A stretch of DNA of 50,980 nt from positions 1-50,980 of the forward strand of contig JAJZGD010000003.1 of the NCBI GenBank assembly GCA_021804985.1. Reading direction: 5' to 3'. The stretch is from Planctomycetota bacterium. Lineage in GTDB: Bacteria; Planctomycetota; Phycisphaerae; WQYP01. Below, in pieces: positions 8,071 to 50,772 of the stretch (the first letter of the stretch is position 1; the number at the start of each line of letters is the position of its first letter). A program made the position numbers and the translations under genes. The notes under the pieces are model-generated. The model searched no databases and was not told where the DNA came from. It saw only the letters and a program-made list of their open reading frames with translations.

Positions 8071-8293
8071 AGCCGGCCACCCTGGTGGCCGCGCCGCAGC
8101 GTCGTCTCTGCGTCTCCCCTTCTCTGCGTGAGATATTAAATAATTGCATCATGCCGCAGCATGATTCCATATTTTTGCCTTTGGCAAAAATCGCTCTCCC
8201 GCTCACCCGAAACGACCGATGTCTCACACGGAGGCGCAGAGGCACAGAGGCTGGCCGGCGTAACACGCGGCGACACCACGACGCGGGCTAAGC
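8071..8293. repeat. interspersed repeat family A, copy 2 (complete imperfect palindrome)
   Basis: The left arm CTCTGCGTCTCCCCTTCTCTGCGTGAGA (8105-8132) is mirrored by the right arm TCTCACACGGAGGCGCAGAGGCACAGAG (8222-8249). There is an internal hairpin ATCATGC-cgca-GCATGAT. The outer modules are AGCCGGCCACCCTGGTGGCC and GGCGTAACACGCGGCGAC. Confidence 0.75.
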
Positions 8294-8496: not shown

Positions 8497-8553
<57 letters not shown>

Positions 8554-16661: not shown

Positions 16662-16830
16662 TATTGGGGGCATAGACGTTAACTTAAGCCTGCCCTTTGC
16701 GGCTTTTTCGGCGTGTCAGCCAATGCGATGGTGATAGCGCCGTCGCCAACGCCCTCGCACCGCATGCATCTTGGCCGCCTCTCGGCGCCGCCGGGACCGC
16801 AGGCGTCCCGCCTGCTTGTCGGCGTCATAT

Positions 16831-17002
16831 AGCCAGCCACCCTGGTGGCCGCGCGTCGCCGGATAGGTGTCTTGCGTTATGTGCGCGAGAAATAAATGAA
16901 TTGCACCATGCGACCGACAGCACCCCCGGCACCGCCCGAAACGCCGATTGCCTCACGCAGAGGCGAAGAGGCTGCCTGCGGGCAGCACGCCGACCCGCGG
17001 CC
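16831..17002. repeat. interspersed repeat family A, copy 3 (diverged)
   Basis: Contains AGCCAGCCACCCTGGTGGCC and CCCGAAACGCCGATTGCCTCACGCAGAGGCGAAGAGGCTGCCTGCGGGCAGCACGCC. These match 8071-8090 and 8207-8255, and the reverse complement of 50147-50199. Confidence 0.6.
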
Positions 17003-17007
17003 ACGAG

Positions 17008-17110
17008 GAGCCTGTCCGAGTAATGGCCGGGATTGGGATGGGTCTGAAATGCCCTGAATGCGCGGCGGAGGATCGAGCCGACTCTGAATAACGAGTCATC
17101 GAGATCCGAC
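17008..17110. repeat. interspersed repeat family B, copy 1
   Basis: GAGCCTGTCCGAGTAATGGCCGGGATTGGGATGGGTCTGAAATGCCC...GCGCGGCGGAGGATCGAGCCGACTCTGAA aligns at roughly 80% identity (by eye) with 25490-25592. Confidence 0.7.
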
Positions 17111-17261
17111 AACAAAGCAGGCGGGGCATTTCAGGCCCACCCCGCGGGGCGACGTGCTTTTTGTCCCCCCTCTGCGGCGCGGCGCCTCGATGTACCGTCT
17201 GCGTCAGGTACGCCATCGTCGCCGCTGCTTGATGGGTGCCAAAAATCACGCCGTCGCAACC

Positions 17262-17316
17262 CGGCGATTACTTGGACAGGCTCCTATGCTGGCTGGCTTA
17301 ACACGCGGCGACGTGC
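17262..17316. repeat. inverted fragment of family B joined to a family A outer module
   Basis: CGGCGATTACTTGGACAGGCTCC is the reverse complement of the family B 5' end. The following GGCTGGCTTAACACGCGGCGAC matches 8250-8273. Confidence 0.55.
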
Positions 17317-22751: not shown

Positions 22752-23111
22752 GCCGGTCGCTCGGTATCACGGTTGCGAAGTTCCTCGGCCGCGCGGTGGC
22801 GAGGCAAGATTGCACGGCCGCACGGGGGCTGCGCGATGGCGCCGCTGCGCGGTGGACATTGGGGCGCGAGAAGTGTGGGTCGCAGGCCCGCGTGATTACG
22901 GGGCGGCGCCGACGCCCGGCGCAGGTCTCGGCAGGTATTTCCACGTGCGGCCGGCGATAAAATTTTTACAAAACTTTTACATCTTTTGGTTGGCTTCATC
23001 TGTTGCGTTGGGTAAACTCGCTTTGCATCGATCGTGGCCGACACTGGCGGCGATCAGACCGTGCTGCCGGGGCAAAATCCCTGGCGTGGCCAAAGCGACC
23101 TGAGGCAAACT

Positions 23112-25298
23112 ATGCACGACCCGATTTTACAACTGCTGATACAGATCGCGGTCATTCTTTTGGCGGCCCGCGTGGTAGGAAAAATCATGCGCTGGATTGG
23201 CCAGCCGCGTGTGGTGGGTGAAATGCTCGGCGGCATCATTTTGGGGCCGTCGGTGTTGGGCCTGCTTTACCATGGCGCAGCGCTGGCCATGCTGTTCCCC
23301 GTGCATAAAGGTGGCGATCCATATCCATTTCTTAATATCTTAAGCCAGATCGGCGTGGTCTTGTTCATGTTCCTTGTAGGCCTGGAACTCGACATGAAAC
23401 TGCTGCGCAATCAGGGCAAAGCCCTGATCATCACCGGCGGTATGAGCGTCGCCGGGCCGCTGGTATGCGGCATCCTTCTGGGGCTTTACCTCTTCAAAGA
23501 ATTTCACGGTCCGGGCGGCAACGAGCTGGTCTTTACCCTATTCATCGGCACCGCCATGTGCATCACCGCGTTTCCGGTACTCGCCCGCATGATCACGGAG
23601 CGCAACCTGCAACGGTCGCGCGTGGGCACATTCAGCATGGCCTGCGGAGCGCTCAATGATGTGGTGGGATGGTGCCTGCTGGCGCTGGTCATTGCGATAT
23701 GCACGTCCGATGGATTGGGTACACATAAAAGCGGAGATCCGCTTTTTTCGGCCGTGATGACGCTGATCTGGACGGTCGTATTCAGTGCCTTCATGCTTCT
23801 GGTGATGCCCAAAGTTCTCCGTTTGTTGCAGGGGCTTTATGAACGGCGCGGATATTTATCGCAAGATACCCTCGCGGTGATTCTGCTGCTGGTGCTCGCC
23901 TCCAGCGCCATGACCGATTGGATCGGAATTCAGCCCATATTCGGGGCATTTCTTCTGGGCATGGCCATGCCCGCAGAAAGTAAATTTGTCCGCCACCTTA
24001 CCGAAAAGCTTGAGGATTTTATCCTGCTCTTCCTGTTGCCGATCTTTTTCGCCTACACCGGTTTGCGCACCCGCATCGGGCTTTTAGATAATGCCCATCT
24101 TTGGAAAATCTGTCTGCTGGTGGTCGTAATTGCCACCGTCGCTAAAGTGCTGTTTTCTTTTTGTGGCGCCCGCATCGCCGGCCTATCCTGGCGGCAATCC
24201 GGTGTGCTCGGTTCGTTAATGAATGCCCGCGGCCTCGTGGAACTTATCGTGCTGAACATCGGATTGACGCTGCATGTGCTTTCTCCGCAGATGTTCGCCA
24301 TAATGGTCATTATGGCCTTGGCCACCACGTTTATCACCACACCATTGTTGTATCTGGCCTATTCGCCGGCCCGTCAGAGGCGCGATCAGGCCGCCGAAGA
24401 TCACCGGCCGATTCCGGGGGAATCCCGCACCCTGGTAACCGTTTCTTCCCCTCAAACCGCGTCCGGGCTCGTTCGCATAGGTACCGCGTTACTCGGTGCG
24501 GGCACCGGCAAGCTCTGCGTGCTGAACCTGAACAACCCGGATGAGCAGGAACGTCGCAGCAAGGCATTTTATACCGCGACCGATCCCGTCGAATTGGCCC
24601 TGCGCCAGGCCGCCACCATAGATGTCCCCGTCAGTGCGGTGGGGCTTGTCAGCACCGATTTCGCCTCGGATATTATCCTCACCGCGGATCGCTTTGACGT
24701 GCGCTGGATTGTTCTCGGCGGCCATCAGGGGCTGTTCGCCCCTTCCACATTGGGCCATATTGCCGATGAAATAATCCTGCATTCCAATCGCCACGTGGCG
24801 ATTTTTGTGGAGAAGAATCTGCGCTCCGTGCAACGCATTATGGTGCCGTATATTGGAGAAAATCAAGATGTAGGGGCGTTGCAGGCGGCCGACCTGATAT
24901 CACAACGGCATGATGCACGCGTAACGATTCTGCATGTGGTTAAGCCGGGCAGTCACGCGGATAGCAGTGGACGGCTCGGTGTGCAGTCGTTGGTGGATCG
25001 GCAGTTCGATATTTCCGGCAGCACGCGGCAGGTACGTTTTCAGGTGGTGGAAAGTGATTCCCCGGTCGATGTGGTGGTCAGAGAATCCGCCAATTACGAC
25101 CTGATAATTCTCGGCATTTCGGCGCAGTGGCAACTCAAGCAGACTTTTCTGAGTCGCTCACAGGCATCGGTTGCCGAGGCGTGCGCCTGTTCAGTTCTCG
25201 CGGTTCATGCCAGTGTTTCGGCCACCGTGCCACGTGCCGCCCCGCCCCAATCCGATGACATGGCACCTCAAAGCGCCCGCCTCGCCGGCCAATCGTAA
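23112..25298 (+). CDS. cation:proton antiporter (CPA2/Kef-type) with C-terminal tandem universal-stress-protein-like domains
   Basis: About 12 TM helices (GQPRVVGEMLGGIILGPSVLG, LFMFLVGLELD, NARGLVELIVLNIGL). About 300 aa of USP-like alpha/beta domains follow. The start is taken at MHDPILQLL (23112); the ORF opens at 23034. Confidence 0.85.
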   Translation: MHDPILQLLIQIAVILLAARVVGKIMRWIGQPRVVGEMLGGIILGPSVLGLLYHGAALAMLFPVHKGGDPYPFLNILSQIGVVLFMFLVGLELDMKLLRNQGKALIITGGMSVAGPLVCGILLGLYLFKEFHGPGGNELVFTLFIGTAMCITAFPVLARMITERNLQRSRVGTFSMACGALNDVVGWCLLALVIAICTSDGLGTHKSGDPLFSAVMTLIWTVVFSAFMLLVMPKVLRLLQGLYERRGYLSQDTLAVILLLVLASSAMTDWIGIQPIFGAFLLGMAMPAESKFVRHLTEKLEDFILLFLLPIFFAYTGLRTRIGLLDNAHLWKICLLVVVIATVAKVLFSFCGARIAGLSWRQSGVLGSLMNARGLVELIVLNIGLTLHVLSPQMFAIMVIMALATTFITTPLLYLAYSPARQRRDQAAEDHRPIPGESRTLVTVSSPQTASGLVRIGTALLGAGTGKLCVLNLNNPDEQERRSKAFYTATDPVELALRQAATIDVPVSAVGLVSTDFASDIILTADRFDVRWIVLGGHQGLFAPSTLGHIADEIILHSNRHVAIFVEKNLRSVQRIMVPYIGENQDVGALQAADLISQRHDARVTILHVVKPGSHADSSGRLGVQSLVDRQFDISGSTRQVRFQVVESDSPVDVVVRESANYDLIILGISAQWQLKQTFLSRSQASVAEACACSVLAVHASVSATVPRAAPPQSDDMAPQSARLAGQS

Positions 25299-25489
25299 TG
25301 AACCGCCATCACGAGGTGCATCCGCGATGGAAGTCCCTTTTTGGCGCAGGCGATCGGCGCCGGCGCTGCCGGAACTGCCCGCCAACCGCATGCATCACCA
25401 CCGGCGACGGGAAAACGGACGCCAAATGTCGGCAGCCGACAACGCGCATTCGCAGTCGCGAGAAACTTGATTAAACTCAGCGTGCCAAT

Positions 25490-25592
25490 GAGCCTGTCCG
25501 AGTAATCGCCGAGATTGCGATGGGCCTGCGATGGCCCGTACGCGCGGCGGAAGATCGAGCCGACTTTGAACAATGAGTCTGCGAGATGCGAT
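25490..25592. repeat. interspersed repeat family B, copy 2 (left border of the defence island)
   Basis: GAGCCTGTCCGAGTAATCGCCGAGATTGCGATGGGCCTGCGATGGCCC...GCGCGGCGGAAGATCGAGCCGACTTTGAA, homologous to 17008-17110. Confidence 0.7.
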
Positions 25593-25633
25593 CGGGTTCA
25601 TCGCGGCGGGCAACTGAGGCAGTGGAGATACCC

Positions 25634-28600
25634 ATGGCGCAGTCGGATATGACGTTTATCAGCAATGAGGCCGGCAGGACCTTGCGCGAACGCCTTGCCA
25701 CCTTGTTGGCGGCCGATACGCGCTTATTTGACTGCCTCGTGGGGTATTTCTACATCAGCGGCTTTCATAACCTTTACCCCAGCCTCGAAAACGTCGAGAA
25801 AATCCGCATCCTCGTCGGCCTCAGCACCGACGACACTGTCCGGAACCTGCTGCATGACGCCGCGCGGCCGTCGGATGAACCGTCCACCCTACGGTTCCAG
25901 TCCCATGCGGTGGTTGAGGAAAACATCCCTCACGCCATGCTCTGTGAACTTGAGAGGGCCGAATACACCGCTGAGGTCGAAACCGGCGTAACCAAATTTG
26001 TCCAGTGGATTCAATCCGGAAAGCTGGAAATCAGAGCGCATCCGTCCGAGAATTTGCACGCCAAAGTTTACATTATGACCTTCCACGATGGCGACAGGGA
26101 CGTCGGCCGTGTGATCACCGGCTCCAGCAATCTCACCCAATCCGGCCTGCAGGACAATCTGGAATTCAACGTCGAGCTTAAAAACCGCTCGGATTACGAC
26201 TTTGCCGCCGCTAAATTCAATGAACTTTGGGCGACCGCCGTGGAGGTGTCCAAACCCTGCGAAGCCGCCATCCTCCAGCAATCACCGTATGCGCAATTTA
26301 CCCCGTACGAACTTTACCTGAAATTCCTATACGAATATTTCCGCAGTGAACTTAACCGCCCCAAAGAGCTTGACGATCTTTATGTCCCCAACGGATTTAA
26401 AAAGCTGAAATATCAGGAAGAGGCCGTCCTGACCGCAAAAAAAATTCTGGAAGAATATGGCGGCGTATTTCTTTCCGACGTCGTCGGGCTTGGTAAAACC
26501 TACATGGCGGCCATGCTGGCCCAACAGCTCGACGGGCGCTCGCTGGTACTCGCGCCGCCGCACCTGATTGATGCCAACAACCCCGGCTCATGGCGCAACG
26601 TTTTTGGAGAGTTCCGCGTGCCCCATACCGATTTCGAATCGATTGGAACGCTGGATTCCCTTCTGCAGCGCGACACCGCCCGCTACAAAAACGTTTTTAT
26701 TGACGAATCGCATCGCTTCCGTAATGATGACAATCAAACCTACGCCAACCTCGCGCAAATCTGCCGGGGCAAGCGTATTATTCTGGTCTCGGCCACGCCG
26801 CTGAACAATACCCCCAATGACATACTCAGCCAGATCAAGCTGTTTCAGAATGGCGCCAACAGCACCATTCCCAACGTCCGCGACTTGGGGGCCTTTTTCA
26901 GCAAGCTTCAGGAAAATCTGCGCGGCCTCGACCGCCGCGAGCACCGTGACAAATATTTAAACGCCGTCCAGGAGAACGCCAGGACTACGCGCGAAAAAGT
27001 CCTTAAATACCTCATGATCCGCCGCACACGGGGAGAGATCCTGAAATACTACGGCGACGACCTTGCGTCGCAAGGCCTGAAGTTTCCCGCAGTCGCCGAT
27101 CCGCAGCCCCTTTTCTACAAACTCAACAAAGCCGAAAGCGGCGTTCTCGATTCCACCATCCGCCTGCTCACGCAGGATTTTAAATACGCCCGCTATAAGC
27201 AGCTGCTCTACTACCGCGGGCAGCGCGACCAAAAACAATCTCAGGGCCAGCAGAATCTTGCCAAGTTTATGAAAATTCTGATGGTCAAGCGGCTCGAAAG
27301 CAGCTTTCACGCCTTCCGCTCGACGTTAGGCCGCTTCATAGACACTTACAAGCGCGTTATCGCTGAATTCCACAAGGGTAACGTCTACATAAGCAAAGAA
27401 TACACCGATAAAATCTTCGACCTGTTGGAAAGCAACGATCACGACGCCATTCAACAACTGCTGGATGATGAAAAGGCTGAAAGGCTCAACGCCCGTGATT
27501 TCCTGGCGAATTTCATTACCGATCTTGAGAGCGATCTCGCCATCCTTGAAACCATCCATTCGGCTTGGAAAGATATTAAACGCGACCCCAAATGGGAAAC
27601 CTTCCGCGAAATCCTCCTGGCCGACAAACGGCTCAAAAATGCCAAGCTCATCATTTTCACTGAATCCAAAGAGACGGCCGAATACCTCGGCGCAAAAATC
27701 GCTGCCGAGGTTGATAAAAAAGTAATTGTTTCCAGCGGCGAATCCGATGAGGCCACCTACCGGCAGGTCACCGATAATTTTGACGACCGGGCCCTCCATC
27801 GCAAGGATGATTACCGCATCCTCGTTGCTACGGAAGTGCTTTCTGAGGGCGTCAACCTCCACCGCTCCAATATTGTGATTAACTACGACATTCCGTGGAA
27901 CCCCACCCGCCTGGTCCAGCGCGTGGGCCGGGTGAACCGCGTGGGCACCAAATTTGAAATCATTCACACCTATAACTTTTTCCCGACGGATGAAGGCAAC
28001 GACCTGATCAAACTCAAGGAAGCCGCCGAGGCCAAAATTCACGCCTTTATCGAGATGCTCGGTACCGATGCCCGCCTGCTTACCGATGGGGAAGAAATTA
28101 AATCACATGATTTGTTTTCCCAGCTGAATTCCAAAGCCGCCATCACGGGCGAAGATGAACAGCAGGAAACAGAACTTAAATATCTCACCGAAATCCGCGA
28201 AGTCCGCGATAAACAGCCCGACCTTTTCTCCCGCATCAAGCGGCTGCCGAAAAAAGCCCGCTCCACACGAGCCTGGCCCGCGCAAAAGGAAATCAGGCGC
28301 GAATTCGCATGCCCATCACTGGTGACTTACTTCCGCCAGGGGCGGCTGGATAAATTTTTCATTGCCGCTCCCCATGGCGGCCCCCAGGAGTTGGACTTCA
28401 TGGTCGCGGTCAAGCTCCTCCAGCCCGCGGATCCGGCGGAAAAACCGCTGCCGATTGCAGAAGGGTTTTACCATCTGCTGGATTTAAACCGCTCCGCTTT
28501 CCTGGCCGCCACAAGTGAGTCTGCCGCCGCCACCGGAAGGCCCGGCGGCGGTTCCCACGCCGTCTATATTCTCCGGCGGCTGGCCGCCCGGGAATTTCGC

Positions 28601-28861
28601 GGTTATCACGGCTTCACCGAGGAAGATGAGGCGTTCACCCAACAGGTCGCCCAATCATTCGCGGATGGCGCAATCCCAAAAATCACCGCGAAGAAAATTG
28701 CCCAATTACTGAAAAAAGAATCCGACCCGCTCAAAGTACTCAGCATTCTGCGCCGCGAAATTCCTACCTCGCTGCTTTCACCCACCCAATCCGCCCAGGC
28801 CGCCCGCGCCGCAAGCCCGCGTGAGGTGATTCTCTCTTCCATGCTGCTGGAGGCACCATGA
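25634..28861 (+). CDS. PLD-family (HKD) nuclease domain fused to an SNF2-family helicase
   Basis: The N-terminus has a single HKD motif, HAKVYIM...[10 protein letters not shown]. The SNF2 core shows GLGKT (motif I), DESHRFRN (II) and VSATPLNN (III). The C-lobe reads [14 protein letters not shown]...[23 protein letters not shown]. The start is taken at the ATG at 25634 ([12 protein letters not shown]); the ORF opens at 25586. Confidence 0.9.
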   Translation: [1075 protein letters not shown]

Positions 28862-28864
28862 ATC
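28814..28864 (+). repeat. 51-bp direct repeat, left copy (helicase 3' end / ATGA junction)
   Basis: AGCCCGCGTGAGGTGATTCTCTCTTCCATGCTGC[T]GGAGGCACCATGAATC. The same 51-mer with one mismatch is at 30266-30316, an offset of 1452 bp. Confidence 0.9.
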
Positions 28865-29049
28865 ACGATCAGTCCGGGCCAATCGCAAAGAAAACCCTCA
28901 CGCGAAAATTCGACGCGGGCCGATTTCTGGAATTTGTCGGCAAGCGGCTCAACACGGTGGGGCAAGCCAAGGCATACGCTCGCAATAGCCAATACGTCAA
29001 AAGCATACTTAGTGTTGCCGATAAAGGTCGTGGAAGGGGGGCGGCATGA
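28858..29049 (+). pseudogene. 63-codon remnant of a diverged methyltransferase N-terminus
   Basis: MNHDQSGPIAKKTLTRKFDAGRFLEFVGKRLN...NSQYVKSIL aligns with the MTase N-terminus MNRDQARNLVRETLTQKFDKGRFTALVGNLLN...NNQYVKDAF. Homology stops near 29010. There are ATGA overlaps at both ends, with the helicase stop and with the yhcG-like start. Confidence 0.65.
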
Positions 29050-30209
29050 TCAGAAGGCGTGACTCGCTGGCCGGGCCTAAGCCCAAAATCGCCGGCTACG
29101 AGGCGTTTCTGGCCGGCGTTACCGGCCTGCTCGAATCAGCCCGGCGCGGTGCCGCCCGGGCTGTTAATTCCCTCATCACCGCAACTTACTGGGAAATCGG
29201 CCGCCGCATGGTGCAATTGGAACAAGGTGGAGAATCGCGGGCCGATTATGGCGAATACCTCATGGACCGCTTATCCGCCGATCTTTCTGTGCGCTACGGT
29301 CGAGGCTTCTCCCGCCGGGCGGTCTATCAGATGCGGGCGTTCTATCTGGCATATCCGGCAATTGTGCAGACACCCTCTGCACAATTCGTCGCAACTGCCC
29401 AACTGCCTCCGGAGGTCAATCCGCTGATTGTGCAATCACCGATTGCACAATTGCCATCGCCGCGGTTCCCGCTGACCTGGACCCACTATGTGCGGATGCT
29501 GGCGGTCAAAAATGAATCCGCTCGAAACTTCTATGAAACCGAGGCCCTCCGATGCGGATGGTCCATCCGCCAGCTGGATCGCCAGATTGATTCGCTCTAT
29601 TACGAACGCACGGCCTTGTCAAAAAATAAGGCCGCCATGCTTGCCAAAGGCCGAAAAAAAAGTCCCGGCGACGCCGTTACCCCCGAAGAAGAAATCAAAG
29701 ACCCCTTCGTTCTGGAATTTCTACAACTCAAAGATGAATACTCCGAAACCCAATTGGAAGAGGCGCTCATCCGCCATTTGGAATCGTTCCTTCTGGAACC
29801 TGGCGATGATTTCGCCTTCCTTGGCCGGCAAAAGCGATTGCGGATCGACGACCAATGGTTCCGCGTCGATCTGTTATTTTTCCACCGCCGGCTTAAATTC
29901 CTGATCGTCATCGATCTCAAGACGGGAAAATTTACTCATGCCGATGCCGGCCAAATGCACCTGTATCTCAATTATGCCTCTGAACATTGGGTCCGGCCGG
30001 GAGAAAATCCGCCTGTGGGCCTGATTCTCTGCGCTCAGAAAGACGCGGCCATTGTTCATTATGCGCTGGAGAATTTGCCCAACAAAGTTCTTGCGGCGGA
30101 GTATAAAATGAAATTGCCCGATGAAGCCACCCTCGCCAATGAAATGGATCGCACGCGCAGGGCGCTGGAAATCAGATCAGTGCCCAGGCGCGGGGGCACG
30201 AAGAAATGA
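29046..30209 (+). CDS. YhcG-like PD-(D/E)xK nuclease domain protein (DUF1016 family)
   Basis: YWEIGRRMV, WTHYVRML, FYETEALRCGWSIRQLDRQI, DPFVLEFL and FLGRQKRLRIDDQWFRVDLLFFHRRLKFLIVIDLKTGKFTHADAGQMHLYLNY form the characteristic DUF1016 N-domain plus restriction-endonuclease-like core (D...DLK). Confidence 0.85.
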   Translation: MIRRRDSLAGPKPKIAGYEAFLAGVTGLLESARRGAARAVNSLITATYWEIGRRMVQLEQGGESRADYGEYLMDRLSADLSVRYGRGFSRRAVYQMRAFYLAYPAIVQTPSAQFVATAQLPPEVNPLIVQSPIAQLPSPRFPLTWTHYVRMLAVKNESARNFYETEALRCGWSIRQLDRQIDSLYYERTALSKNKAAMLAKGRKKSPGDAVTPEEEIKDPFVLEFLQLKDEYSETQLEEALIRHLESFLLEPGDDFAFLGRQKRLRIDDQWFRVDLLFFHRRLKFLIVIDLKTGKFTHADAGQMHLYLNYASEHWVRPGENPPVGLILCAQKDAAIVHYALENLPNKVLAAEYKMKLPDEATLANEMDRTRRALEIRSVPRRGGTKK

Positions 30210-30250
30210 GTACACCCCAAAGCATTATGCTCTATGCTGCAATCATGCGT

Positions 30251-30313
30251 GCCGCCCGTACAACCAGCCCGCGTGAGGTGATTCTCTCTTCCATGCTGCC
30301 GGAGGCACCATGA
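30251..30313 (+). pseudogene. 20-codon remnant of a helicase C-terminus
   Basis: [20 protein letters not shown] compares with the real helicase end [20 protein letters not shown]. Its TGA overlaps the MTase ATG exactly as at the left junction. Confidence 0.6.
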
Positions 30314-30316
30314 ATC
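30266..30316 (+). repeat. 51-bp direct repeat, right copy
   Basis: See 28814-28864. Confidence 0.9.
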
Positions 30317-33300
30317 GCGATCAGGCCCGCAACCTCGTCAGGGAAACCCTTACGCAGAAATTCGACAAGGGCAGGTTCACCGCCTTGGTGGGAAACCTGC
30401 TCAACCGCATCGATACGCAAAAAACGTTTTCCTGCAACAACCAATACGTCAAGGACGCCTTCAAGCCGCACGTGAACCGCTACGAGCGCATCGCAAAATA
30501 CACTGCGCCCGACCAACGCAAAATCGACATTCTGGTGGTGCACCTCACCGAAAACGCCAATCTCGGGCGCACCCGCACCGCATTGCGTAATTTCGTGGCG
30601 GATTATCTAAAAAACCGGGATCGCAAAGATGCGGCCCTGGTGGCATTTGTTTCTCCATCCGACTCGGCCTGGCGCTTCTCCTACGTCAAAATGGAATACG
30701 CCACCGTTGAAACATCATCGGGCGACGTTGCCACAGAAGCCCGCCTCACGCCCGCCCGCAGATTTTCCTACCTCGTTGGCCCCGGAGAAAGTTGCCATAC
30801 GGCGCAGACTCGCTTCGTATCGCTTCTGCAGGACACCACCAACAACCCAACGCTGACGGATATAGAAGCAGCCTTCAGCGTTGAGGCCGTCACCAGGGAA
30901 TTCTTCGCGCGCTACAAGGAACTTTTCCTTGCGGTAAAAGATGAACTCGACAGAATCGCCGCGGCCGAGAAGGCCATCCAGGGCGAATTCAGCCAACGCA
31001 AACTGAGCACCGCCGATTTTGCCAAAAAGCTCCTGGGCCAGATCGTGTTCCTATATTTCCTTCAAAAAAAAGGCTGGCTCGGCGTGGCAAAAGACGGTGC
31101 CTGGGGCAACGGCCCGCATAATTTTCTCCGTAAACTCGCCAACCGCGAATTCGTTAAATATGGCAATCTTTTCAACGATATCCTCGAACCACTCTTTTAC
31201 GATACCCTCGCCACCGACCGTGGCCATGAGGCGCTGTGTAAAAAGTTTAACTGCCGCATTCCCTTCCTCAACGGCGGCCTGTTCGAACCGCTGGGTGGCT
31301 ACGATTGGCGTAACACCGAAATCCTGCTGCCCAATGAATTGTTCACGAATACTCAACCGGTGGAAGAAGGCATCATCGGCACCGGTATTCTGGATGTATT
31401 CGACCGCTACAACTTCACCGTTAATGAAGCCGAGCCGCTGGAAAAGGAAGTCGCGATCGACCCCGAAATGCTGGGCAAGGTTTTTGAAAACCTGCTGGAA
31501 GTAAAGGAACGCAAATCCAAAGGTTCATTCTATACCCCGCGTGAAATTGTGCATTACATGTGCCAGGAAAGCCTGATTAACTATCTCGACACAGCAATCA
31601 ACGGCAATGGTAATGGTGACACAGGCATTCCTGCCTGTAAATTATCCCAGTGTGACACAGGCATTCCTGTCTGTGCCGGCAGTGATGCTGGTGCCCCAGG
31701 CATTCCTGTCTGTGCCCCACCAAAGGTACAGTGTGACACAGACATTCCTGTCTGTGCCGGCAGTGATGCTGGTGCCCCAGGCATTCCTGTCTGTGCCCCA
31801 CCAAAGGTACAGTGTGACACAGACATTCCTGTCTGTGCTGACGTTGATGTTGGCGTCCCAGGCATTCCTGCCTGTGCCTCGTCAAAAGCACAAGGTGACA
31901 CAGGCATTCCTGCCTGTGCCGGCAGTGGGAAAATTCACAAAACCACCCGCAATCTTCCCCATTGGACCAGAGAAGGCTCAGTCTATTGGACCACCTTCCG
32001 ACTCGCCGATTCCCTACCACAGGAAAAGCTCGATGCCTGGCGGGCGGAGCGGGAAATCTGGCTCAACCAACACCCTAAACCCTGGAGTGATGAGGATTGC
32101 AAAGAATACGACGCGATTTTCGACGAACGCCTGCAATCCTGGCTTGACGCCGGCTACGGTTCATGCGCCCTTATGCGGCCTGATGTCCGGCAAGTTGTGC
32201 AAGAGTGCCTGCTTCGCTTCGATGGCCAGCGGCTGCGGCTGCACGCCGCGGTCATCATGCCCAATCATATCCATTTGCTTCTCGAACCCCTTGTCGGCAA
32301 CGAATTGTCTGAACTCCTGAAGGGTATTAAAGGTGCAAGCGCCCGCAAAGCCAACCAAGCCTTGGGTAATACCGGGACCGCCTTTTGGATGGACGAATCT
32401 TACGACCACATTGTTCGCAGTGAGCGGCAGCGGCAACACCTTGTCCGCTACATGATGGAAAATCCCATCAAAGCAAATCTGCCAGCCGACCAATTTTGGC
32501 TTTACCAGTGTGACGGTGACACAGGCATTCCTGTCTGTGCCCCACCACAAACACAGACAAGAATGTCTGTGCCACGCTGTGATATCGAAACCCTTGTTCA
32601 CTCCGGCGACCAGGCGGCCCATTACGAAACCGCCCGCGTTGGAGGCACTACAAGTTACAGGGCTGAACTGCCGCCAGGCATCGAAAACAACGCGCGATCT
32701 CTGGATGAAGCGCTTGCCTCCATCACCGTTTGCGACCCCGCCATCGGTTCCGGCGCCTTTCCCGTCGGGATGATGCACGAAATTGTCCGTGCCCGCTCCG
32801 CCCTGACACCCTATTTCAACGATGTGGCCGAGCGCACCGCCTACCATTTCAAACGCCACGCCATTCAAAACTGCCTCTACGGCGTGGACATCGACCCCGG
32901 CGCGGTGGAGATCGCCAAGTTGCGGCTCTGGCTTTCGCTGGTGGTGGATGAAGAGGATGTCCAGCAGATCAAGCCGCTGCCGAACCTGGATTACAAAGTG
33001 GTGGTGGGCAATTCGCTGCTGGGCGTGGAAAAGACGCTGTTCAACCAAGAATTGTTCACCCGTCTGGAGGAGATCAAGCCAAAATATTTCGATGAAACAA
33101 ACAGCGATAAAAAGCACGAATACAGGAAGGAGATCAACCAACTTATCCAAGATCTCACCGACGGCCAAACGGCCTTCGATTTTGAGATTTATTTCTCGGA
33201 AGTGTTTCACCGTAACGGCGGGTTTGACGTGGTGATCGGCAACCCACCGTATTTGTTCGCAAGAAACAGTAAGGAAAAGGGGATTACCGCAGCGGACAAA

Positions 33301-34431
33301 AAAATCTACAACGGCACCTACATGCTCGCCGAATACCAGATAAACCTTTACCCGCTCTTCATAGAAAGAGGCACCGGGATACTAAGGGAAAGCGGCAGTT
33401 TCGCCTTCATCACGCCCAACAACTGGCTCACGATCAACACAAATGGCCTGCTGAGAAACTTTGTCCTGAACCGGTCGGAAATCACAATCGTCAATTTCTA
33501 CGCCCGCATGTTCGCCGGCGCGGATGTCGACAACTCAATAATCATCTATAAAAAATCCGCGGGGAAACGACGCATAAAACTCTTCGAGTACAGGAGCGGC
33601 CTGGAGCTCGTCAAGGAGGCTGATTGCGACTTCTTCCTGCAGCAACGCGACTCGATCATCAATATCGACGCACAGAAGGGTGGCCACGTTGCCGCATTAA
33701 TGCAAAAAATTGAATCCCGCGCCGACAGGCTCAGGGACGTTGCGGATGCCAGGGTCGGGCTTAAGGCATACCAGACCGGAAAGGGAAGACCACCACAGGA
33801 GAAGAAGGCCAAGGACGGGCGAATTTTCCACTCGGGCGACCAAATCGACGAAACCTACATCAAATACTTGGATGGCAGGGACGTGAGCCGGTACAGGCTG
33901 GGATGGGGAGGCGAATACCTCAAGTACGGCCGTCACCTTGCGGAACCGCGCACACAATTCAGGCTATTTTCCTCGAAGCGTATCCTCGTGCGCCAGATTC
34001 CGGCAAATCCGCCGTATTGTATCCACGCCTGCATCGCCGAGGAAACACTCCTCAATGACCTCAACTCAATGAACATCATCAATTCCCGCGAACCGGCAGA
34101 GCTTGTTCTGGGCATTTTGAACGCGCGGCTCACCTCGTTCTGGTTCGTCCACAGATTCGGCAAAATGCAGCGGCGAACGTTCCCGCAATTCAAAGTGAAC
34201 GAGCTCGCAGAATTTCCACTCCCCCGGGGGAGGGAGCGGCGGCAGGCCGAAATAATCCGCCTGGTTGGCGAGGCCATGTCGGCCAGGCGCAGCGACCCAG
34301 GGGCGGACATCTGTGCCATTGACCGGGAGATCGACCGAATCGTTTATAGCCTTTACGGCCTGACTCCCGAGGAGATCGCCATCGTCGAAGGGACAACCGA
34401 GGCGTCTGGCCGCGAGAAAAAAAAGAGCTAG
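30310..34431 (+). CDS. Eco57I-type (gamma-class) N6-adenine DNA methyltransferase with a TaqI_C-like target-recognition domain, carrying an in-frame REP/RAYT insertion
   Basis: Motif X GSFYTPREIVHYM (FYTP at 31528-31539), motif I CDPAIGSGAFP (from 32734), YGVDIDPGAVEIAKLRLWLSL, and motif IV GNPPY (33241-33252). The C-terminal TRD ends in the typical SLYGLTPEEIAIVE. FYTP and motif I are separated by ~398 aa, of which ~322 aa is the REP/RAYT segment. It is a single uninterrupted 1373-codon ORF. Confidence 0.9.
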   Translation: MNRDQARNLVRETLTQKFDKGRFTALVGNLLNRIDTQKTFSCNNQYVKDAFKPHVNRYERIAKYTAPDQRKIDILVVHLTENANLGRTRTALRNFVADYLKNRDRKDAALVAFVSPSDSAWRFSYVKMEYATVETSSGDVATEARLTPARRFSYLVGPGESCHTAQTRFVSLLQDTTNNPTLTDIEAAFSVEAVTREFFARYKELFLAVKDELDRIAAAEKAIQGEFSQRKLSTADFAKKLLGQIVFLYFLQKKGWLGVAKDGAWGNGPHNFLRKLANREFVKYGNLFNDILEPLFYDTLATDRGHEALCKKFNCRIPFLNGGLFEPLGGYDWRNTEILLPNELFTNTQPVEEGIIGTGILDVFDRYNFTVNEAEPLEKEVAIDPEMLGKVFENLLEVKERKSKGSFYTPREIVHYMCQESLINYLDTAINGNGNGDTGIPACKLSQCDTGIPVCAGSDAGAPGIPVCAPPKVQCDTDIPVCAGSDAGAPGIPVCAPPKVQCDTDIPVCADVDVGVPGIPACASSKAQGDTGIPACAGSGKIHKTTRNLPHWTREGSVYWTTFRLADSLPQEKLDAWRAEREIWLNQHPKPWSDEDCKEYDAIFDERLQSWLDAGYGSCALMRPDVRQVVQECLLRFDGQRLRLHAAVIMPNHIHLLLEPLVGNELSELLKGIKGASARKANQALGNTGTAFWMDESYDHIVRSERQRQHLVRYMMENPIKANLPADQFWLYQCDGDTGIPVCAPPQTQTRMSVPRCDIETLVHSGDQAAHYETARVGGTTSYRAELPPGIENNARSLDEALASITVCDPAIGSGAFPVGMMHEIVRARSALTPYFNDVAERTAYHFKRHAIQNCLYGVDIDPGAVEIAKLRLWLSLVVDEEDVQQIKPLPNLDYKVVVGNSLLGVEKTLFNQELFTRLEEIKPKYFDETNSDKKHEYRKEINQLIQDLTDGQTAFDFEIYFSEVFHRNGGFDVVIGNPPYLFARNSKEKGITAADKKIYNGTYMLAEYQINLYPLFIERGTGILRESGSFAFITPNNWLTINTNGLLRNFVLNRSEITIVNFYARMFAGADVDNSIIIYKKSAGKRRIKLFEYRSGLELVKEADCDFFLQQRDSIINIDAQKGGHVAALMQKIESRADRLRDVADARVGLKAYQTGKGRPPQEKKAKDGRIFHSGDQIDETYIKYLDGRDVSRYRLGWGGEYLKYGRHLAEPRTQFRLFSSKRILVRQIPANPPYCIHACIAEETLLNDLNSMNIINSREPAELVLGILNARLTSFWFVHRFGKMQRRTFPQFKVNELAEFPLPRGRERRQAEIIRLVGEAMSARRSDPGADICAIDREIDRIVYSLYGLTPEEIAIVEGTTEASGREKKKS
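31621..31918 (+). repeat. array of 8 REP hairpins (consensus CACAGGCA-TTCC-TGCCTGTG) including an 81-bp tandem repeat
   Basis: Hairpins at 31621-38, 31656-75, 31697-712, 31737-56, 31778-93, 31818-37, 31859-74 and 31899-918. The stem variants CACAGACA/TGTCTGTG keep pairing. Units starting at 31650, 31731 and 31812 have an exact 81-bp (27-codon) period. Confidence 0.85.
32529..32580 (+). repeat. REP doublet downstream of the RAYT core (one direct, one inverted)
   Basis: 32529-48 is CACAGGCA-TTCC-TGTCTGTG. 32561-80 is CACAGACA-AGAA-TGTCTGTG, whose loop is the reverse-orientation version (complement TTCT). Confidence 0.8.
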
Positions 34432-34441
34432 GAATTGACCA

Positions 34442-34654
34442 ATGAAAATCAGCCGTGTGCAGATTAAAAACTTCCGTAACTTCGCCAGCCTTGATGTGGC
34501 CCTTGGCGAACACGCCGTTATCGTCGGCGAAAACAAGGTCGGAAAATCGAATTTCCTATTCGCACTGCGATTGATTCTCGACCCGTCGCTGCCAGATACG
34601 GCAAGAAAACTTCGTGACGAAGACTTCCGGCCTTGGGAAAGGGGCGACCGGTGA
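34442..34654 (+). pseudogene. N-terminal stub (70 codons) of an OLD-family / AAA_15 ATPase (GajA/OLD-like)
   Basis: MKISRVQIKNFRNFASLDVALGEHAVIVGENKVGKSNFLFALRLILDPSL is the canonical OLD/AAA_15 start with Walker A GxNxxGKS. The frame stops at codon 70, and no Walker B or TOPRIM region follows in any frame. Confidence 0.7.
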
Positions 34655-34707
34655 GCAGGTACACACGGCGTCTAACGCGCCCCGGCGCGCCACGCTCCAT
34701 CCTTACC

Positions 34708-36174
34708 ATGACCGCAGCGCAGGCACGCACGTTTTTCCTAAAGACAGAGAGCTACTGCAATTTTGACCTACCAGGGTACATCCAGTTCGGTTCCCTGTTG
34801 GAGGCCGTCGCCGAGCAGATGCGCGGTAAGGAGCTTCGCGCTATGTCCCTGAACCCTCGCGAGCACGAGGGCGTGAATTACACGGTGCAGTCGAACAAGG
34901 ACGGCCGATACGCGTGGCGGCCGCTACAGCTGATTCACCCCGCCCTCTACGTCTCGCTGGTGGACAAGATCACCACCCCAGAAAATTGGGGGGCGATAAC
35001 ACGCCGATTCATTGATTTCCAAAAATCATGCAAACTCAGATGCCTGGGCATCCCGCTGCAGTCCCGGGCGGGGGGCAAGGACAAGGCCGCCCTGATCGGC
35101 AGCTGGTGGCAAGAAATAGAGCAGAGATCGATCGAGCTCGCCATCGAATACGGCCATCTATTTCACGCAGACATCAAGGGTTGCTACGCCGCGATCTACA
35201 CGCATTCGATCGCATGGGCGCTACACGGCAAGAACGAGGCAAAAAGCGCCCGGCGCAATAAAGAACTCATCGGGAACGCCATCGATGCGCAAATCCAAGG
35301 CATGCGTCAGGGCCAGACCAACGGAATCCCCCAGGGGTCAGTATTGATGGATTTCATCGCTGAAATGGTTCTCGGCCACGCCGACCTCGATCTAACCACC
35401 CGCATTGGGGCCGCCGGAATTAGTGACTACCACATCCTGCGCTACCGCGACGACTACCGGGTGTTTACAAACAACCCCCGGGATGGCGAACAAATCCTTA
35501 AGCTGCTGACGGAAGTTCTCATCGGCCTGGGCATGCAGCTGAACACGGCCAAGACAGGGGGATCGTCGCAGGTCGTGAAAAGCTCCGTAAAGGCCGACAA
35601 GCGGTCATGGATCCGGGGGAAACAGTGGGACCGGAACCTTCAAAAGCACCTGCTCATAATCCACGCGCACGCTGAGGATTTCCCAAACTCCGGCAGCGTT
35701 GTTGTCGCCCTTGGGCGCTTCCACAAGAGAGTGTATGAGGAAAAGGCTTTCCAAAACGTCCGTGCCCTGATCAGCATCGTTGTTGACATCGCGTACGGCA
35801 GTCCGAGGGCATTTCCGGTGTGCGCGGCAATCATCAGCAAGCTACTAACCGCGATCAAGGAGAAGGCAGAACGGGAAGAGATCGTGGGGAATGCCCACAC
35901 CAAGATGTCACAGATGCCCAACACCGGCCACATTGAGTTGTGGCTCCAGCGAATCAGCTACGCGAGCGGTTTGGGCGTCGCCTACGGTGAACCGATATGC
36001 AAGCTCGTTGAGGGCGAGGCCACTGGCCTTTGGAACAGCGACTGGATCAAGGACGAGAACCTGAAGGCGGCACTCAACCCGTCCGGGATTGTTAGCAGGC
36101 CAAGGCTTCGCGCGGCCAAGCCTGTCATCGCACCGGAGGAGATAGCGGTCTTCCCGGAGGAACGGTACGAGTGA
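34708..36174 (+). CDS. stand-alone reverse transcriptase, Abi/UG (defence-associated) type with a helical C-terminal domain
   Basis: RT motifs: 1/2 KDGRYAWRPLQLIHPALYV; A FHADIKGCYAAIYTHSI; B NGIPQGSVLMDFIAEMVL; C ILRYRDDYRVF (YxDD); D/E GMQLNTAKT. About 200 aa of predicted helical C-terminus follow. The start is taken at the ATG at 34708 (MTAAQARTFF); the track ORF opens at a TTG at 34633. Confidence 0.85.
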   Translation: MTAAQARTFFLKTESYCNFDLPGYIQFGSLLEAVAEQMRGKELRAMSLNPREHEGVNYTVQSNKDGRYAWRPLQLIHPALYVSLVDKITTPENWGAITRRFIDFQKSCKLRCLGIPLQSRAGGKDKAALIGSWWQEIEQRSIELAIEYGHLFHADIKGCYAAIYTHSIAWALHGKNEAKSARRNKELIGNAIDAQIQGMRQGQTNGIPQGSVLMDFIAEMVLGHADLDLTTRIGAAGISDYHILRYRDDYRVFTNNPRDGEQILKLLTEVLIGLGMQLNTAKTGGSSQVVKSSVKADKRSWIRGKQWDRNLQKHLLIIHAHAEDFPNSGSVVVALGRFHKRVYEEKAFQNVRALISIVVDIAYGSPRAFPVCAAIISKLLTAIKEKAEREEIVGNAHTKMSQMPNTGHIELWLQRISYASGLGVAYGEPICKLVEGEATGLWNSDWIKDENLKAALNPSGIVSRPRLRAAKPVIAPEEIAVFPEERYE

Positions 36175-36445
36175 GCGGCCGGTGGCAAGCCCATACCGGT
36201 ACGCTAGGCCGAGGCGTCCCGCAGCCCCGCCGGGCCGGGTCGGTATGCGCAAGCCAAGGCCCCAGCAGCGCGGTGATCCAGGCCTTCGACGCCGTGCGTG
36301 AATTTCGCGATCCAGGCGTGGCCCCAACCGATGGCCTCCCTTCGCCGATGGGACGCGAACGCTTGCGCACCCTGCTACCTGAGTGGTAACTCGCAATAAT
36401 TTACGCCACCGGGCCAGTGGCCGATGCAGAGCCGCTTGGCTTGCC

Positions 36446-37159
36446 TCATTCGGCGTTCAGTTCATGCAGATTGATGCCAAGCGTTTCCAGTGCGCATTTG
36501 GCCGCCAATTGCTCCGCCAGCTTTTTGCTGTTTCCCCAGCGCGACTCAAACTGCCGCTCTCCAATGGCGACGTAAATTTGAAATGATTTATCATGATCCA
36601 ACCCGGTTTCCGCCTGCACGTGATAAACGGGTGTCGTACCAAATTCGCGTTGGGCATGCTGCTGCAGTATCGATTTGTAATTCTGATCATGCTGATTATT
36701 AATAATTTCCCGCAGGTGTTCATTCATCGCCGGCATGAGGAACTTGCGGATGGTTTTTAAATCGCCGCCGCTGTCGAGATACATCGCTCCCAAAATCGCT
36801 TCCAGCAATCCGGCCGCCACACTCACCGGCAAGCCGCCGGTCCGGTTCATGCCGGGGCCCACACGCACCAATGCCGTCAGGCCGATTTTATCGCTGATGC
36901 GGGCGCACGTTTTACGGCTGACGGCCGCGGCCTTCAGTATGGTCAGATCCCCCTCACGCCGATCGGGGAACAGGTTAAAAACATGCTCGCAGATCAACAG
37001 GCCAAGCACCGCATCGCCCAGAAATTCCAGCCGTTCATAATTATGCAGGCGATGGGCCGCGGCCGAGGAATGGGTCAGCGCGGCATCAAGAATGGTCGCA
37101 TCTTTAAAGCTATATCCAATGATGGCCTGGCAGTTCTTTAAACTTTCCACGTCAACCAT
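36446..37159 (-). CDS. rnc: ribonuclease III
   Basis: The signature NYERLEFLGDAVLGL and a C-terminal dsRBD (SKKLAEQLAAKCALETL). Confidence 0.95.
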   Translation of the reverse strand: MVDVESLKNCQAIIGYSFKDATILDAALTHSSAAAHRLHNYERLEFLGDAVLGLLICEHVFNLFPDRREGDLTILKAAAVSRKTCARISDKIGLTALVRVGPGMNRTGGLPVSVAAGLLEAILGAMYLDSGGDLKTIRKFLMPAMNEHLREIINNQHDQNYKSILQQHAQREFGTTPVYHVQAETGLDHDKSFQIYVAIGERQFESRWGNSKKLAEQLAAKCALETLGINLHELNAE

Positions 37160-50100: not shown

Positions 50101-50340
50101 GTTAAGCCGGCTGAGCCTGCTGGCCGCGGGTCGTGTTGTCGCGGCGTGCTGCCCGCAGGCAGCCTCTGTGCCTCTGCGCCTCTGCGTGAGACAACCGTCG
50201 TTTCAGTTAATTTAATGAATCATGCCTCCGGCATGATGTAATTATTTAATATCTCACGCAGAGAAGGGGAGACGCAGAGAACGACGACGGCGCGCCACCC
50301 CCGCGCCATTAAGCCGGCCAGCCTGCTTTACCGCGCCTCG
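50101..50340. repeat. interspersed repeat family A, copy 4 (complete ~130-nt imperfect palindrome plus outer modules)
   Basis: CCTCTGTGCCTCTGCGCCTCTGCGTGAGA...AATCATGCC-tcc-GGCATGAT...TCTCACGCAGAGAAGGGGAGACGCAGAGA, centred near 50231. It is the reverse-complement counterpart of 8098-8255, minus a ~45-nt internal segment. Confidence 0.75.
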
Positions 50341-50407: not shown

Positions 50408-50500
50408 TTCCGCGTCGAATTTGTCGGGCAGTTTGTTTTCGCCTACGCAGCCTTGGGGATTGGTAATGTGCGGTGCCGAAAAAGACTCAGCTTCCTCTCT

Positions 50501-50523
50501 CACAATGGCCTCGGGCCATTGTG
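50501..50523 (+). other. perfect 10-bp hairpin CACAATGGCC-tcg-GGCCATTGTG
   Basis: Read directly from the sequence. It lies 16 nt upstream of the octamer repeat. Confidence 0.8.
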
Positions 50524-50538
50524 GCGGCGCACGCAGCG

Positions 50539-50700
50539 CAGCCCGACAGCCCGACAGCCCGACAGCCCGACAGCCCGACAGCCCGACAGCCCGACAGCCC
50601 GACAGCCCAACAGCCCAACAGCCCAACAGCCCAACAGCCCAACAGCCCAACAGCCCAACAGCCCAACAGCCCAACAGCCCAACAGCCCAACAGCCCAATA
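50539..50700 (+). repeat. octanucleotide microsatellite: 8 x CAGCCCGA then about 12 x CAGCCCAA
   Basis: Counted from the sequence. GCCCGACA units run 50541-50604, GCCCAACA units 50605-50692, and the last unit is degenerate (GCCCAATA). The unit length is not a multiple of 3. Confidence 0.9.
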
Positions 50701-50737
50701 TTATAGCGCGGTAACCGCAGCGCATTCCTCGCGCCCT

Positions 50738-50772
50738 AAGCCGGCCAGCCTGCTGGCCGCGCCTCGTCATCG
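50738..50772. repeat. partial family A outer module (direct repeat of 50309-50343)
   Basis: CTAAGCCGGCCAGCCTGCTGGCCGCGCCTCGTC compared with TTAAGCCGGCCAGCCTGCTTTACCGCGCCTCGTC. The two copies bracket the promoter-hairpin-microsatellite segment. Confidence 0.6.

Follow-up and report, generated by a model that had tools for sequence, protein, structure and literature searches.

A putative two-gene helicase/methylase defense system of a Planctomycetota bacterium, with a transposase lying in frame in its methylase gene

We analyzed a 50,980-nt stretch (hereafter the window) of contig JAJZGD010000003.1 from a Planctomycetota bacterium (GCA_021804985.1), and in it a defense island at ~25.5-36.4 kb with a helicase/methylase gene pair at its core. 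The island genes all lie on the + strand, from a Na+/H+ exchanger-Usp gene (23034-25298) to rnc (36446-37159, minus strand), and comprise a PLD-Snf2 helicase, a YhcG nuclease, an N6-adenine (N6A) methylase, the stub of an ATPase and a defense reverse transcriptase (RT). An original prediction, read from the letters of the window, had listed these genes on one strand between the antiporter and rnc, had seen in them a defense island with cassette turnover, and had placed yhcG in the helicase/methylase junction, a repetitive extragenic palindrome (REP) array with its transposase inside the methylase, and a truncated ATPase beside the RT; we found all of this to be so. The island is a stack of four defense modules at different life stages, and we infer the functions of its genes throughout. 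As defense islands go it is ordinary; it is the unnamed helicase/methylase pair and, above all, the transposase lying in frame that merit attention. The two genes of the pair are as follows:

25634..28861, + strand: PLD(HxK)-Snf2 helicase-nuclease, 1075 aa (Pfam PLDc_2, SNF2-rel_dom, Helicase_C)
30310..34431, + strand: gamma-class N6-adenine methylase of the Eco57I type, with TaqI_C as its recognition domain and an N-terminal domain specific to the family; a single open reading frame (ORF) of 1373 aa

The true start of the helicase was placed 48 nt inside the longest ORF because its homologs begin MAQSDMTF. The protein has the motifs expected of both of its parts, namely H142-x-K144, GSSN163, a Walker A motif (GLGKT285), DESH357 and motif VI (QRVGR), and it retains 357 of 359 near-invariant columns (at least 97% conserved among 53 homologs). 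Its best match among PADLOC profiles was C3a139, an HKD+Snf2 model (171 bits), and it also matched DrmD (120 bits). The AlphaFold2 (AF2) model of the helicase was of low confidence, with a mean predicted local distance difference test score (pLDDT) of 61 and a PLD part below 50; the Snf2 core alone was usable, and it matched the Swi2/Snf2 translocases of double-stranded DNA (Mot1, CSB, RapA, Rad54 and ZorD) at E ~1e-13. A plasmid collection held only distant relatives of the helicase, at less than 36% identity and under generic names.

The methylase ORF is uninterrupted and carries the domains Eco57I, N6_Mtase and TaqI_C, with a Y1_Tnp domain inside. Motif X (GSFYTPREIV, residues 405-414), motif I (DPAIGSGAF) and motif IV (NPPY) are all present, and the C-terminal half, made up of the catalytic domain and the start of the recognition domain, keeps 77 of 77 conserved columns, including DPAIGSG and NPPY. 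The original prediction held that every core gene is scarred, a claim that the intact columns of both proteins, and the open frame through the transposase, contradict. When the window was compared with a related locus, L002 (window 30310-34431 versus L002 3659-7945; related loci are referred to by such labels), the target recognition domain (TRD) was only 23% identical whereas the catalytic part was 64% identical, pointing to the swapping of specificity domains between alleles.

Between phyla, the first ~430 residues of the methylase show 50-81% identity. The methylase fold takes in residues ~230-433, and residues 1 to ~170 form a separate alpha/beta domain. This N-terminal domain had no match in Pfam (E <= 10), in sequence and profile searches of the Protein Data Bank (PDB), or in a Foldseek search with its AF2 model (pLDDT 78), and no conserved PD-(D/E)XK pattern was seen in it in alignments of 57 and 51 sequences. 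In PADLOC the whole methylase, its N-terminal 433 aa included, scored 801 bits against REase_MTase_IIG (PDLC03596), and the part downstream of the transposase scored 318 bits. The match to DrmMI reached 111 bits, matches of window proteins to DrmC were weak, and those of the methylase to PglX were weak as well, at most 62 bits against cut-offs of 400-900.

We searched for relatives of the pair by scanning one genome per species, which yielded 80 loci with helicase homologs at 57-81% identity from Planctomycetota, Verrucomicrobiota, Acidobacteriota, Nitrospirota, Chloroflexota, Bacteroidota and other phyla. The methylase came next after the helicase in nearly every locus with enough downstream DNA. 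The end of the helicase and the start of the methylase were both present in 64 loci, and in 43 of these the genes directly abutted or overlapped; start and stop overlap, and the two genes are translationally coupled. Clustering of the neighboring ORFs placed the helicase in 79 loci, the methylase in 63 and the next most frequent family in 6, and no third conserved gene, ATPase included, was found beside the pair in the 80 loci. The three-gene core of the original prediction is thus reduced to two families. The reverse check, starting from methylase matches on long contigs, found the helicase upstream in 3 of 3 cases.

The pair appears to be very common, with thousands of homologs in many phyla, and current tools report at most a lone “type IIG” gene. 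Our literature search, the coverage of which is incomplete, found no paper naming or testing the pair. Milman et al. remark in passing that Cj0031-like type II restriction-modification (R-M) genes are found beside a PLD+SNF gene, beside a DUF1016 gene, or solitary (PMC9881135). As a putative widespread two-gene defense system for which we found neither a name nor a system definition, the pair is of modest novelty. The system is often caught decaying. In two loci the pair is split by transposases of insertion sequences (IS), of the rve type in L084 (3610-9974) and the DDE_Tnp_1 type in L086 (419-8946), and in L085 (4756-9710) it is broken into many small ORFs.

Within the methylase gene lies a unit of ~0.94 kb, consisting of a REP-associated tyrosine transposase (RAYT) and its REP hairpins, located in a variable-length loop between motifs X and I:

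31609..31929, + strand: 5' REP array of eight hairpins, each with an 8-bp stem and a 4-nt loop; the in-frame translation gives DTGIPVCA-type peptides
31930..32514, + strand: RAYT (Y1_Tnp; NF047646, PF01797) with HUH (NHIHLL) and Y-x3-NP motifs
32515..32580, + strand: two 3' REPs, a direct and an inverted hairpin, which encode ...TGIPVCAPPQTQTRMSV, joined to native VPRCDIE

Ten REP hairpins flank the RAYT, all of them within the methylase gene, with 0.01 expected. We found no further REP copies elsewhere in the 51-kb window, which is atypical for a REPtron; in other respects the unit has the makings of one, being a Y1 transposase with HUH and Tyr motifs between cognate hairpin arrays. The six start-to-start spacings of REPs reported in the region of the 5' array measure 36, 39, 42 or 81 nt, each divisible by 3. 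The reading frame is kept through the RAYT, which has neither a start nor a stop codon of its own; in the window, L001 and L002 no ATG, GTG or TTG occurs in frame from the host sequence up to the first conserved RAYT motif. The ORF reads through the RAYT in the window, in L001 (to the end of the contig), L002 (1428 aa), L054 (1314 aa), L050 and L042, the last two with a RAYT and REPs of another family (46-47% identity).

Pairwise dN/dS was 0.05-0.12 upstream of the RAYT, in the N-terminal part of the methylase, and 0.09-0.24 downstream of it (dS > 1), and ~0.2 for the RAYT itself. Translation of the downstream half of the methylase has to pass through the insert, and a functional fusion protein is therefore very probably produced. 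We read the RAYT and its REPs as a selfish passenger that would be translated within the methylase and tolerated by it. Synonymous divergence (dS) is lower in the RAYT (0.3-0.9) than in the methylase around it (0.9-2.7), the same loop of the L073 methylase contains REP-derived peptides and no RAYT, and the RAYT-less L004 nests among RAYT-bearing methylase alleles; together these data suggest that the element moves or is lost and is not simply inherited.

We hypothesize that the core of the island is an autonomous two-gene, ATP-dependent R-M-like system composed of the PLD-Snf2 helicase-nuclease and the Eco57I-type methylase, with YhcG as an embedded cassette, the RAYT as a passenger, and a Gabija stump followed by an AbiP2 RT downstream, and we put the probability of this at about 0.6. 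In such a system the variable TaqI_C domain would let the methylase read a short DNA motif and mark host DNA at N6-adenine, while the PLD-Snf2 protein, a putative translocase of double-stranded DNA, would be recruited to unmethylated sites and would cut foreign DNA there with its PLD domain. Two helicase protomers probably join their single HxK motifs into one active site, and the conserved N-terminal domain of the methylase most likely docks the helicase. The RAYT would be expressed only through the fusion, and YhcG would act as a second-line module.

Several observations weigh against this hypothesis. For this family we infer cleavage, methylation and defense alike. The PLD part of the helicase model is poor (pLDDT < 50), and the AF2 model of the methylase N-terminal domain (pLDDT 78) had no PDB match. 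The filing of the methylase as type IIG by PADLOC (801 bits), together with a solitary Cj0031 homolog (PMC9881135), means that the methylase could hold a nuclease of its own and that the helicase could be an accessory. The methylase of the most similar characterized system, MANTIS, needs two further proteins, MtsA and MtsB, which are both absent here, and the analogy may not carry over. Decay is seen in related loci, by truncation of the methylase in L169 and L170 and by the IS splits in L084 and L086. In L169 (9001-11163) and L170 (5039-7201) the methylase ORF ends exactly at the 3' REP hairpin, the catalytic half is lost and pgk comes next, which shows the unit at the very point of truncation. 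Finally, an insertion of 314 residues within the methylase fold could impair the methylase despite the open frame. The truncated methylase of L169 and L170 is labeled “transposase” at NCBI.

MANTIS, also known as Gao_RL or “BREX-related type 2” (MtsA-D), is the closest characterized system to the pair. The two are alike by domain architecture, with an HKD/PLD nuclease fused to an SF2 motor (MtsD) and an N6A methylase supplying recognition, and MANTIS follows an R-M-like logic in which methylation marks DNA as self and restriction acts on unmethylated sites. MtsD, which works downstream of the N6A methylase, forms a PLD-SF2 dimer with a single composite active site (bioRxiv 10.64898/2026.09.23.753747). 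MANTIS requires MtsA (a DUF499 AAA+ protein) and the small MtsB for both methylation and restriction, MtsB being given as DUF3780 in one account (PMC12839542) and as DUF3870 in the MANTIS preprint, whereas MtsA and MtsB are absent from the window and are not conserved near the pair in the 80 loci. The pair differs in turn by the extra conserved N-terminal domain of its methylase, by its TaqI_C TRD and by a helicase with C3a139 as its best PADLOC model. With MtsA and MtsB missing and every long ORF of the island accounted for, we rejected membership in MANTIS.

Class 1 DISARM likewise has a Snf2 helicase (DrmD), an N6A methylase (DrmMI) and a PLD protein (DrmC), but it is made up of five genes, whereas the pair consists of two, has PLD and Snf2 fused, and comes without DrmA or DrmB (DUF1998). 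We rejected DISARM on finding no ORF for DrmA or DrmB in the island and none conserved in related loci, and BREX on the absence of PglZ and BrxC from the island; here we agree with the original prediction, which had excluded DISARM, BREX and type I systems. Type ISP enzymes (LlaGI, LlaBIII) and type III R-M systems combine, as the pair is predicted to do, a nuclease, an SF2 motor, a gamma-class methylase, a TRD and ATP-dependent communication between sites. Type ISP enzymes, however, are one polypeptide with an Mrr-type nuclease, and the type III Res protein is of the PD-(D/E)XK type, whereas the pair consists of two proteins with a nuclease of the PLD type. The pair reads as a stripped-down relative of MANTIS and DISARM that does without their extra ATPases, and it bears on the minimal needs of a motor-nuclease and methylase.

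Type IIG enzymes of the Eco57I/Cj0031 type resemble the methylase in joining a gamma-class N6A methylase and a C-terminal TaqI_C-type TRD in one polypeptide, with TRDs swapped between alleles. The methylase might therefore be a self-sufficient type IIG restriction-methylase with an N-terminal nuclease, and the PLD-Snf2 protein either an accessory motor or an independent SauUSI-like enzyme. We consider this unlikely. It would account for the 801 bits against PDLC03596, a match that spans the N-terminal 433 aa too, and it has a precedent in Cj0031, a type IIG enzyme that restricts phage (PMC4889913); homologs of Cj0031 occur both solitary and with PLD-SNF partners (PMC9881135). Yet classic type IIG enzymes are single-gene systems with their own nuclease, whereas here the PLD-Snf2 partner is near-invariable, its adjacency to the methylase near-obligate and the start/stop overlap present across phyla. 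We also found no nuclease signature in the methylase, the N-terminal domain of which shows no conserved PD-(D/E)XK-like motif in the alignments, no Pfam match (E <= 10) and no match to a PDB fold.

It could also be supposed that the whole locus is a decaying, non-functional remnant kept by chance, given that Gabija is dead, that the methylase carries a 0.94-kb insertion, that L169 and L170 are without the catalytic half of the methylase and that other loci are disrupted by IS or frameshifted. We regard this as improbable, since none of the four long ORFs is interrupted, conserved columns and motifs persist, purifying selection is strong on both sides of the insertion at dS > 1, and the AbiP2 RT aligns end to end with its profile. 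The original prediction had asked whether the island is a new combination or a system in decay. The helicase and methylase, YhcG and the RT all look functional, and decay applies to Gabija, which alone is dead.

To see how far the RAYT occurs in frame beyond the window, we searched its segment against 1.8 billion cluster representatives and took the best 150 matches. At least 150 residues of host protein were present on both sides of the RAYT in 30 of these matches, on the N-terminal side only in 17 and on the C-terminal side only in 12; these proportions are rough, as cluster representatives may favor long members. Within the public proteins P0362-P0507, Pfam domains of the host on both sides of the RAYT identified leucyl-tRNA synthetase (LeuRS), XseA, a DinG-like helicase, RecG, HypF, the CCA-adding enzyme, AroE and several Eco57I-type methylases, and the flanks of the internal RAYTs were REP-derived peptides. 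RAYTs in frame within host genes thus seem to be common in public data. Within the helicase/methylase family, RAYTs entered in frame on at least four separate occasions. Such systems offer RAYTs other targets than the methylase: L064 (10001-13864) has a RAYT in frame in the Snf2 helicase partner, and protein P0412 has one in what appears to be a helicase-like protein fragment.

One could argue that the RAYT has been domesticated and that its HUH/Tyr nuclease is a working part of the restriction enzyme, for example in nicking single-stranded or hairpin DNA. Its in-frame position, its lack of a start or stop codon, its intact catalytic motifs, an omega of ~0.2 and the recurrence of insertions in the methylase family would all fit. 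Nevertheless, domestication is very unlikely in view of the many methylase family members that have no RAYT (they are the majority, and L004 nests among the RAYT-bearing alleles), the flanking REP hairpin arrays, which are kept as is typical of a mobile REPtron, the presence of the same RAYT family in frame in unrelated housekeeping proteins, and the different insertion sites in different methylase alleles.

A broader proposal, to which we give slightly less than even odds, is that this kind of REPtron lives in frame in host genes without a start or stop of its own, is produced solely as a domain within the host protein and is tolerated in surface loops much as a non-splicing intein would be, so that the unit would represent an overlooked lifestyle and not a scar. 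Rickettsia palindromic elements and intragenic REPs are known as in-frame palindromic repeats in apparently functional proteins (PMC3733652). These insertions, however, are short repeats alone, of 20-80 codons, whereas here a complete RAYT of ~190 codons is present without its own start or stop. In a survey of Y1 transposases (PMC6006769), “unexpectedly long proteins” were dropped as being fusions or errors, and the literature that we covered, which is not complete, held no description of whole RAYTs in frame. If the proposal were general, RAYTs and REPs would not be only extragenic and would be expressed through host proteins, and thousands of “fusion proteins or annotation errors” would be real biology. 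There is an annotation matter as well, in that relatives of the methylase are labeled “transposase” in public records.

Between the two core genes lie yhcG and two relics of the junction that were missing from the original prediction:

28858..29049, + strand: relic ORF of 63 aa that corresponds to the first ~49 codons of a methylase paralog (47% aa identity to methylase aa 1-49, E 4e-15)
29046..30209, + strand: YhcG/DUF1016 PD-(D/E)XK nuclease (DUF1016_N + YhcG_C; PADLOC PDC-S02)
30251..30309, + strand: relic of the helicase 3' end, 59 nt, with the GGAGG Shine-Dalgarno sequence and ATG context retained for the methylase

YhcG scored 133 and 187 bits in Pfam and 436 bits against PADLOC PDLC04807, the PDC-S02 candidate, and orthologs occupy the same position in L073 (76%) and in L169 and L170 (77%). 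The gene is flanked by a 155-nt direct repeat (77% identity) made of the two relic regions, the central ~56 nt of which are almost identical in both copies, with GGAGG followed by an ATG that overlaps the helicase stop. The relic ORF overlaps both the helicase stop (ATGA) and the yhcG start (ATGA). In L073, where the helicase is 76% identical, we found the same 1452-nt layout with an open 62-codon relic and a TTGA overlap, and in L169 and L170, which are the closest relatives of the module (76% nucleotide identity over 6 kb) and have a RAYT in the methylase too, a 63-residue gene is called between helicase and yhcG in the same duplicated junction. A layout common to the window, L073, L169 and L170 implies that it is inherited or moves as a unit. 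The duplicated junction would preserve the hand-over of ribosomes from helicase to relic ORF to yhcG and, in addition, a Shine-Dalgarno sequence for the methylase, and it shows how a cassette can slot in without breaking the translation of the operon.

A gap at the helicase/methylase junction was present in 21 of the 64 loci and was almost always filled by ORFs on the same strand. The cassettes comprised YhcG, PemK/MazF, DUF4062-HATPase_c_4, SLFN-AlbA_2 (Schlafen), ORF6N, a Zn-ribbon protein and Gp49/RelE with its partner; the duplication of the junction was not found outside the yhcG-bearing lineage in the 20 gapped loci checked. The yhcG gene is an embedded cassette, and the helicase/methylase junction is a recurrent landing site. 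The cassettes in 21 of 64 loci fit the published pattern of embedded defense genes, which has been described for Hma, BREX, DISARM and type I systems (bioRxiv 10.1101/2024.01.29.577857), and DUF1016 genes have been noted beside Cj0031-like type IIG genes and within type I loci (PMC9881135). PDC-S02, YhcG and DUF1016 are absent from the main text of bioRxiv 10.1101/2024.01.29.577857, where the origin of the candidate could not be confirmed, and we found no report in the literature of tested defense activity for the PDC-S02 candidate.

Two further modules, or what is left of them, follow the methylase:

34442..34654, + strand: N-terminal stub of GajA, the OLD-family ATPase (AAA_15) of Gabija, 70 aa (PADLOC GajA)
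34633..36174, + strand: AbiP2-type defense RT with a YRDD motif, probable start M26 (34708)

The best model for the stub was GajA (PDLC00070), with 107 bits over profile positions 1-62. In L002, a Planctomycetota locus in which the methylase likewise contains a RAYT, GajA of 606 aa (732 bits) and GajB of 634 aa (777 bits) come next after the methylase. The stub is 81% identical to the N-terminus of the L002 GajA; at the nucleotide level the identity to L002 gajA is ~87% (hand count from the alignment) from the start codon to ~34630, after which there is none. Gabija, which consists of GajA (ATPase and Toprim) and GajB (a UvrD helicase), is therefore intact as a pair in L002 and incomplete in the window, where GajA is cut and GajB is absent; we found no relic of GajB in the island. 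We read these alignments as a Gabija system that once followed the methylase and was cut after codon ~63 of gajA, with an intact AbiP2 following the breakpoint. The original prediction had counted the ATPase among the core genes. The stub is instead a remnant of neighboring Gabija, the intact gajA-gajB of L002 being at that very position.

The RT matched the AbiP2 profile PDLC03744 end to end, with 639 bits over positions 5-487 of 489, and the structure of Abi-P2 (PDB 7R08) at E 3.8e-85. AbiP2 is a protein-primed, template-independent DNA polymerase of abortive infection. No RNA of an Rfam family was found near the RT, which fits a protein-primed, template-independent Abi polymerase.

The identity of the stub also bears on Hma, to which the original prediction had likened the gene order of the island. 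Hma consists of a helicase, a 5-methylcytosine (m5C) methyltransferase and an ATPase (PMC8565338), the last of which was later annotated as DUF499 (PMC12839542). Like the locus described here, Hma has a Snf2-family helicase-nuclease and a methylase, and other defense genes are often embedded between its core genes. Unlike the pair, it has an m5C methylase, a DUF499 ATPase and a C-terminal PD-(D/E)XK nuclease on its helicase. HmaB did not appear among the 25 best PADLOC matches listed, and the match of the helicase to HmaA was partial (100 bits, profile 371-635 of 1176) and below those to C3a139 (171) and DrmD (120). We rejected membership in Hma, the methylase being of the Eco57I/N6_Mtase type with NPPY and the sole ATPase a 70-aa GajA stub. 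That the island is a decayed Hma system with three core genes each damaged by later insertions is scarcely credible, since the order of helicase, methylase and ATPase matches only superficially and the HmaA match only in part (100 bits), while HmaB (m5C) and HmaC (DUF499) (PMC8565338; PMC12839542) stand against an N6A Eco57I methylase here, the stub belongs to GajA (107 bits; 81% identity with the N-terminus of L002 GajA, next to GajB there), and no ATPase is conserved beside the pair in the 80 loci.

The borders of the island are marked by two features:

25478..25600, no strand: left border, partial copy of a ~280-nt element with terminal inverted repeats (TIRs), one TIR kept
36175..36445, no strand: right border, GC-rich spacer to the convergent rnc

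The repeat that the original prediction had placed at the left border is real and is this partial copy of the TIR element. A full copy lies at 17006-17285; it is ~280 nt long with 26-nt TIRs (92% complementary) and resembles a miniature inverted-repeat transposable element. The 17-mer GAGCCTGTCCGAGTAAT of the element occurs 4 times against 0.02 expected, and a weaker match to the element is found at 4698-4714. No recognizable gene relic was found in the spacer at the right border (36175..36445).

The higher GC content of the RT, noted by eye in the original prediction, was confirmed and is modest: 0.584 (GC3 0.74), compared with 0.543 for the helicase, 0.53-0.55 for the methylase, 0.552 for YhcG and 0.576 for the window. 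A scan for promoters and terminators gave results no better than shuffled controls, the window contained no tRNA, and no match to an Rfam family was found within the island.

The comparison of synteny that the original prediction had proposed did not yield an empty site. Orthologs of the flanking genes came from Phycisphaerae/Planctomycetota metagenome-assembled genomes, and neither the Kef/Usp nor the RluD-rnc contexts allowed an empty site to be defined. The closest Kef/Usp orthologs (84-86% aa; L081-L083) share that gene alone, with phosphoglucomutase and not rnc coming next, and the closest RluD-rnc pair (L087; 68% and 51%) has unrelated genes after it. The module itself is found elsewhere: its copy in L169 sits between isochorismatase and pgk, and its relatives occupy other contexts. 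Nucleotide homology between the window and L169 starts ~10 nt past the helicase start codon (window 25644 / L169 4335; start 25634). Since the two have no upstream promoter region in common, the module may depend on local promoters.

The window contained several other repeats. An 8-nt tandem unit, in ~25-30 copies and drifting from CAGCCCGA to CAGCCCAA, lies near its end at 50499-50738. Dispersed intergenic repeats of the form CTCTGCGTCTCCCC...GAGATATTAA..., with 55-nt arms up to 96% complementary and in both direct and inverted orientation, were seen at no fewer than four sites, at least those at 783-917, 8062-8274, 16822-16992 and 50114-50290. A run of ~21 G residues is found at 8500-8521.

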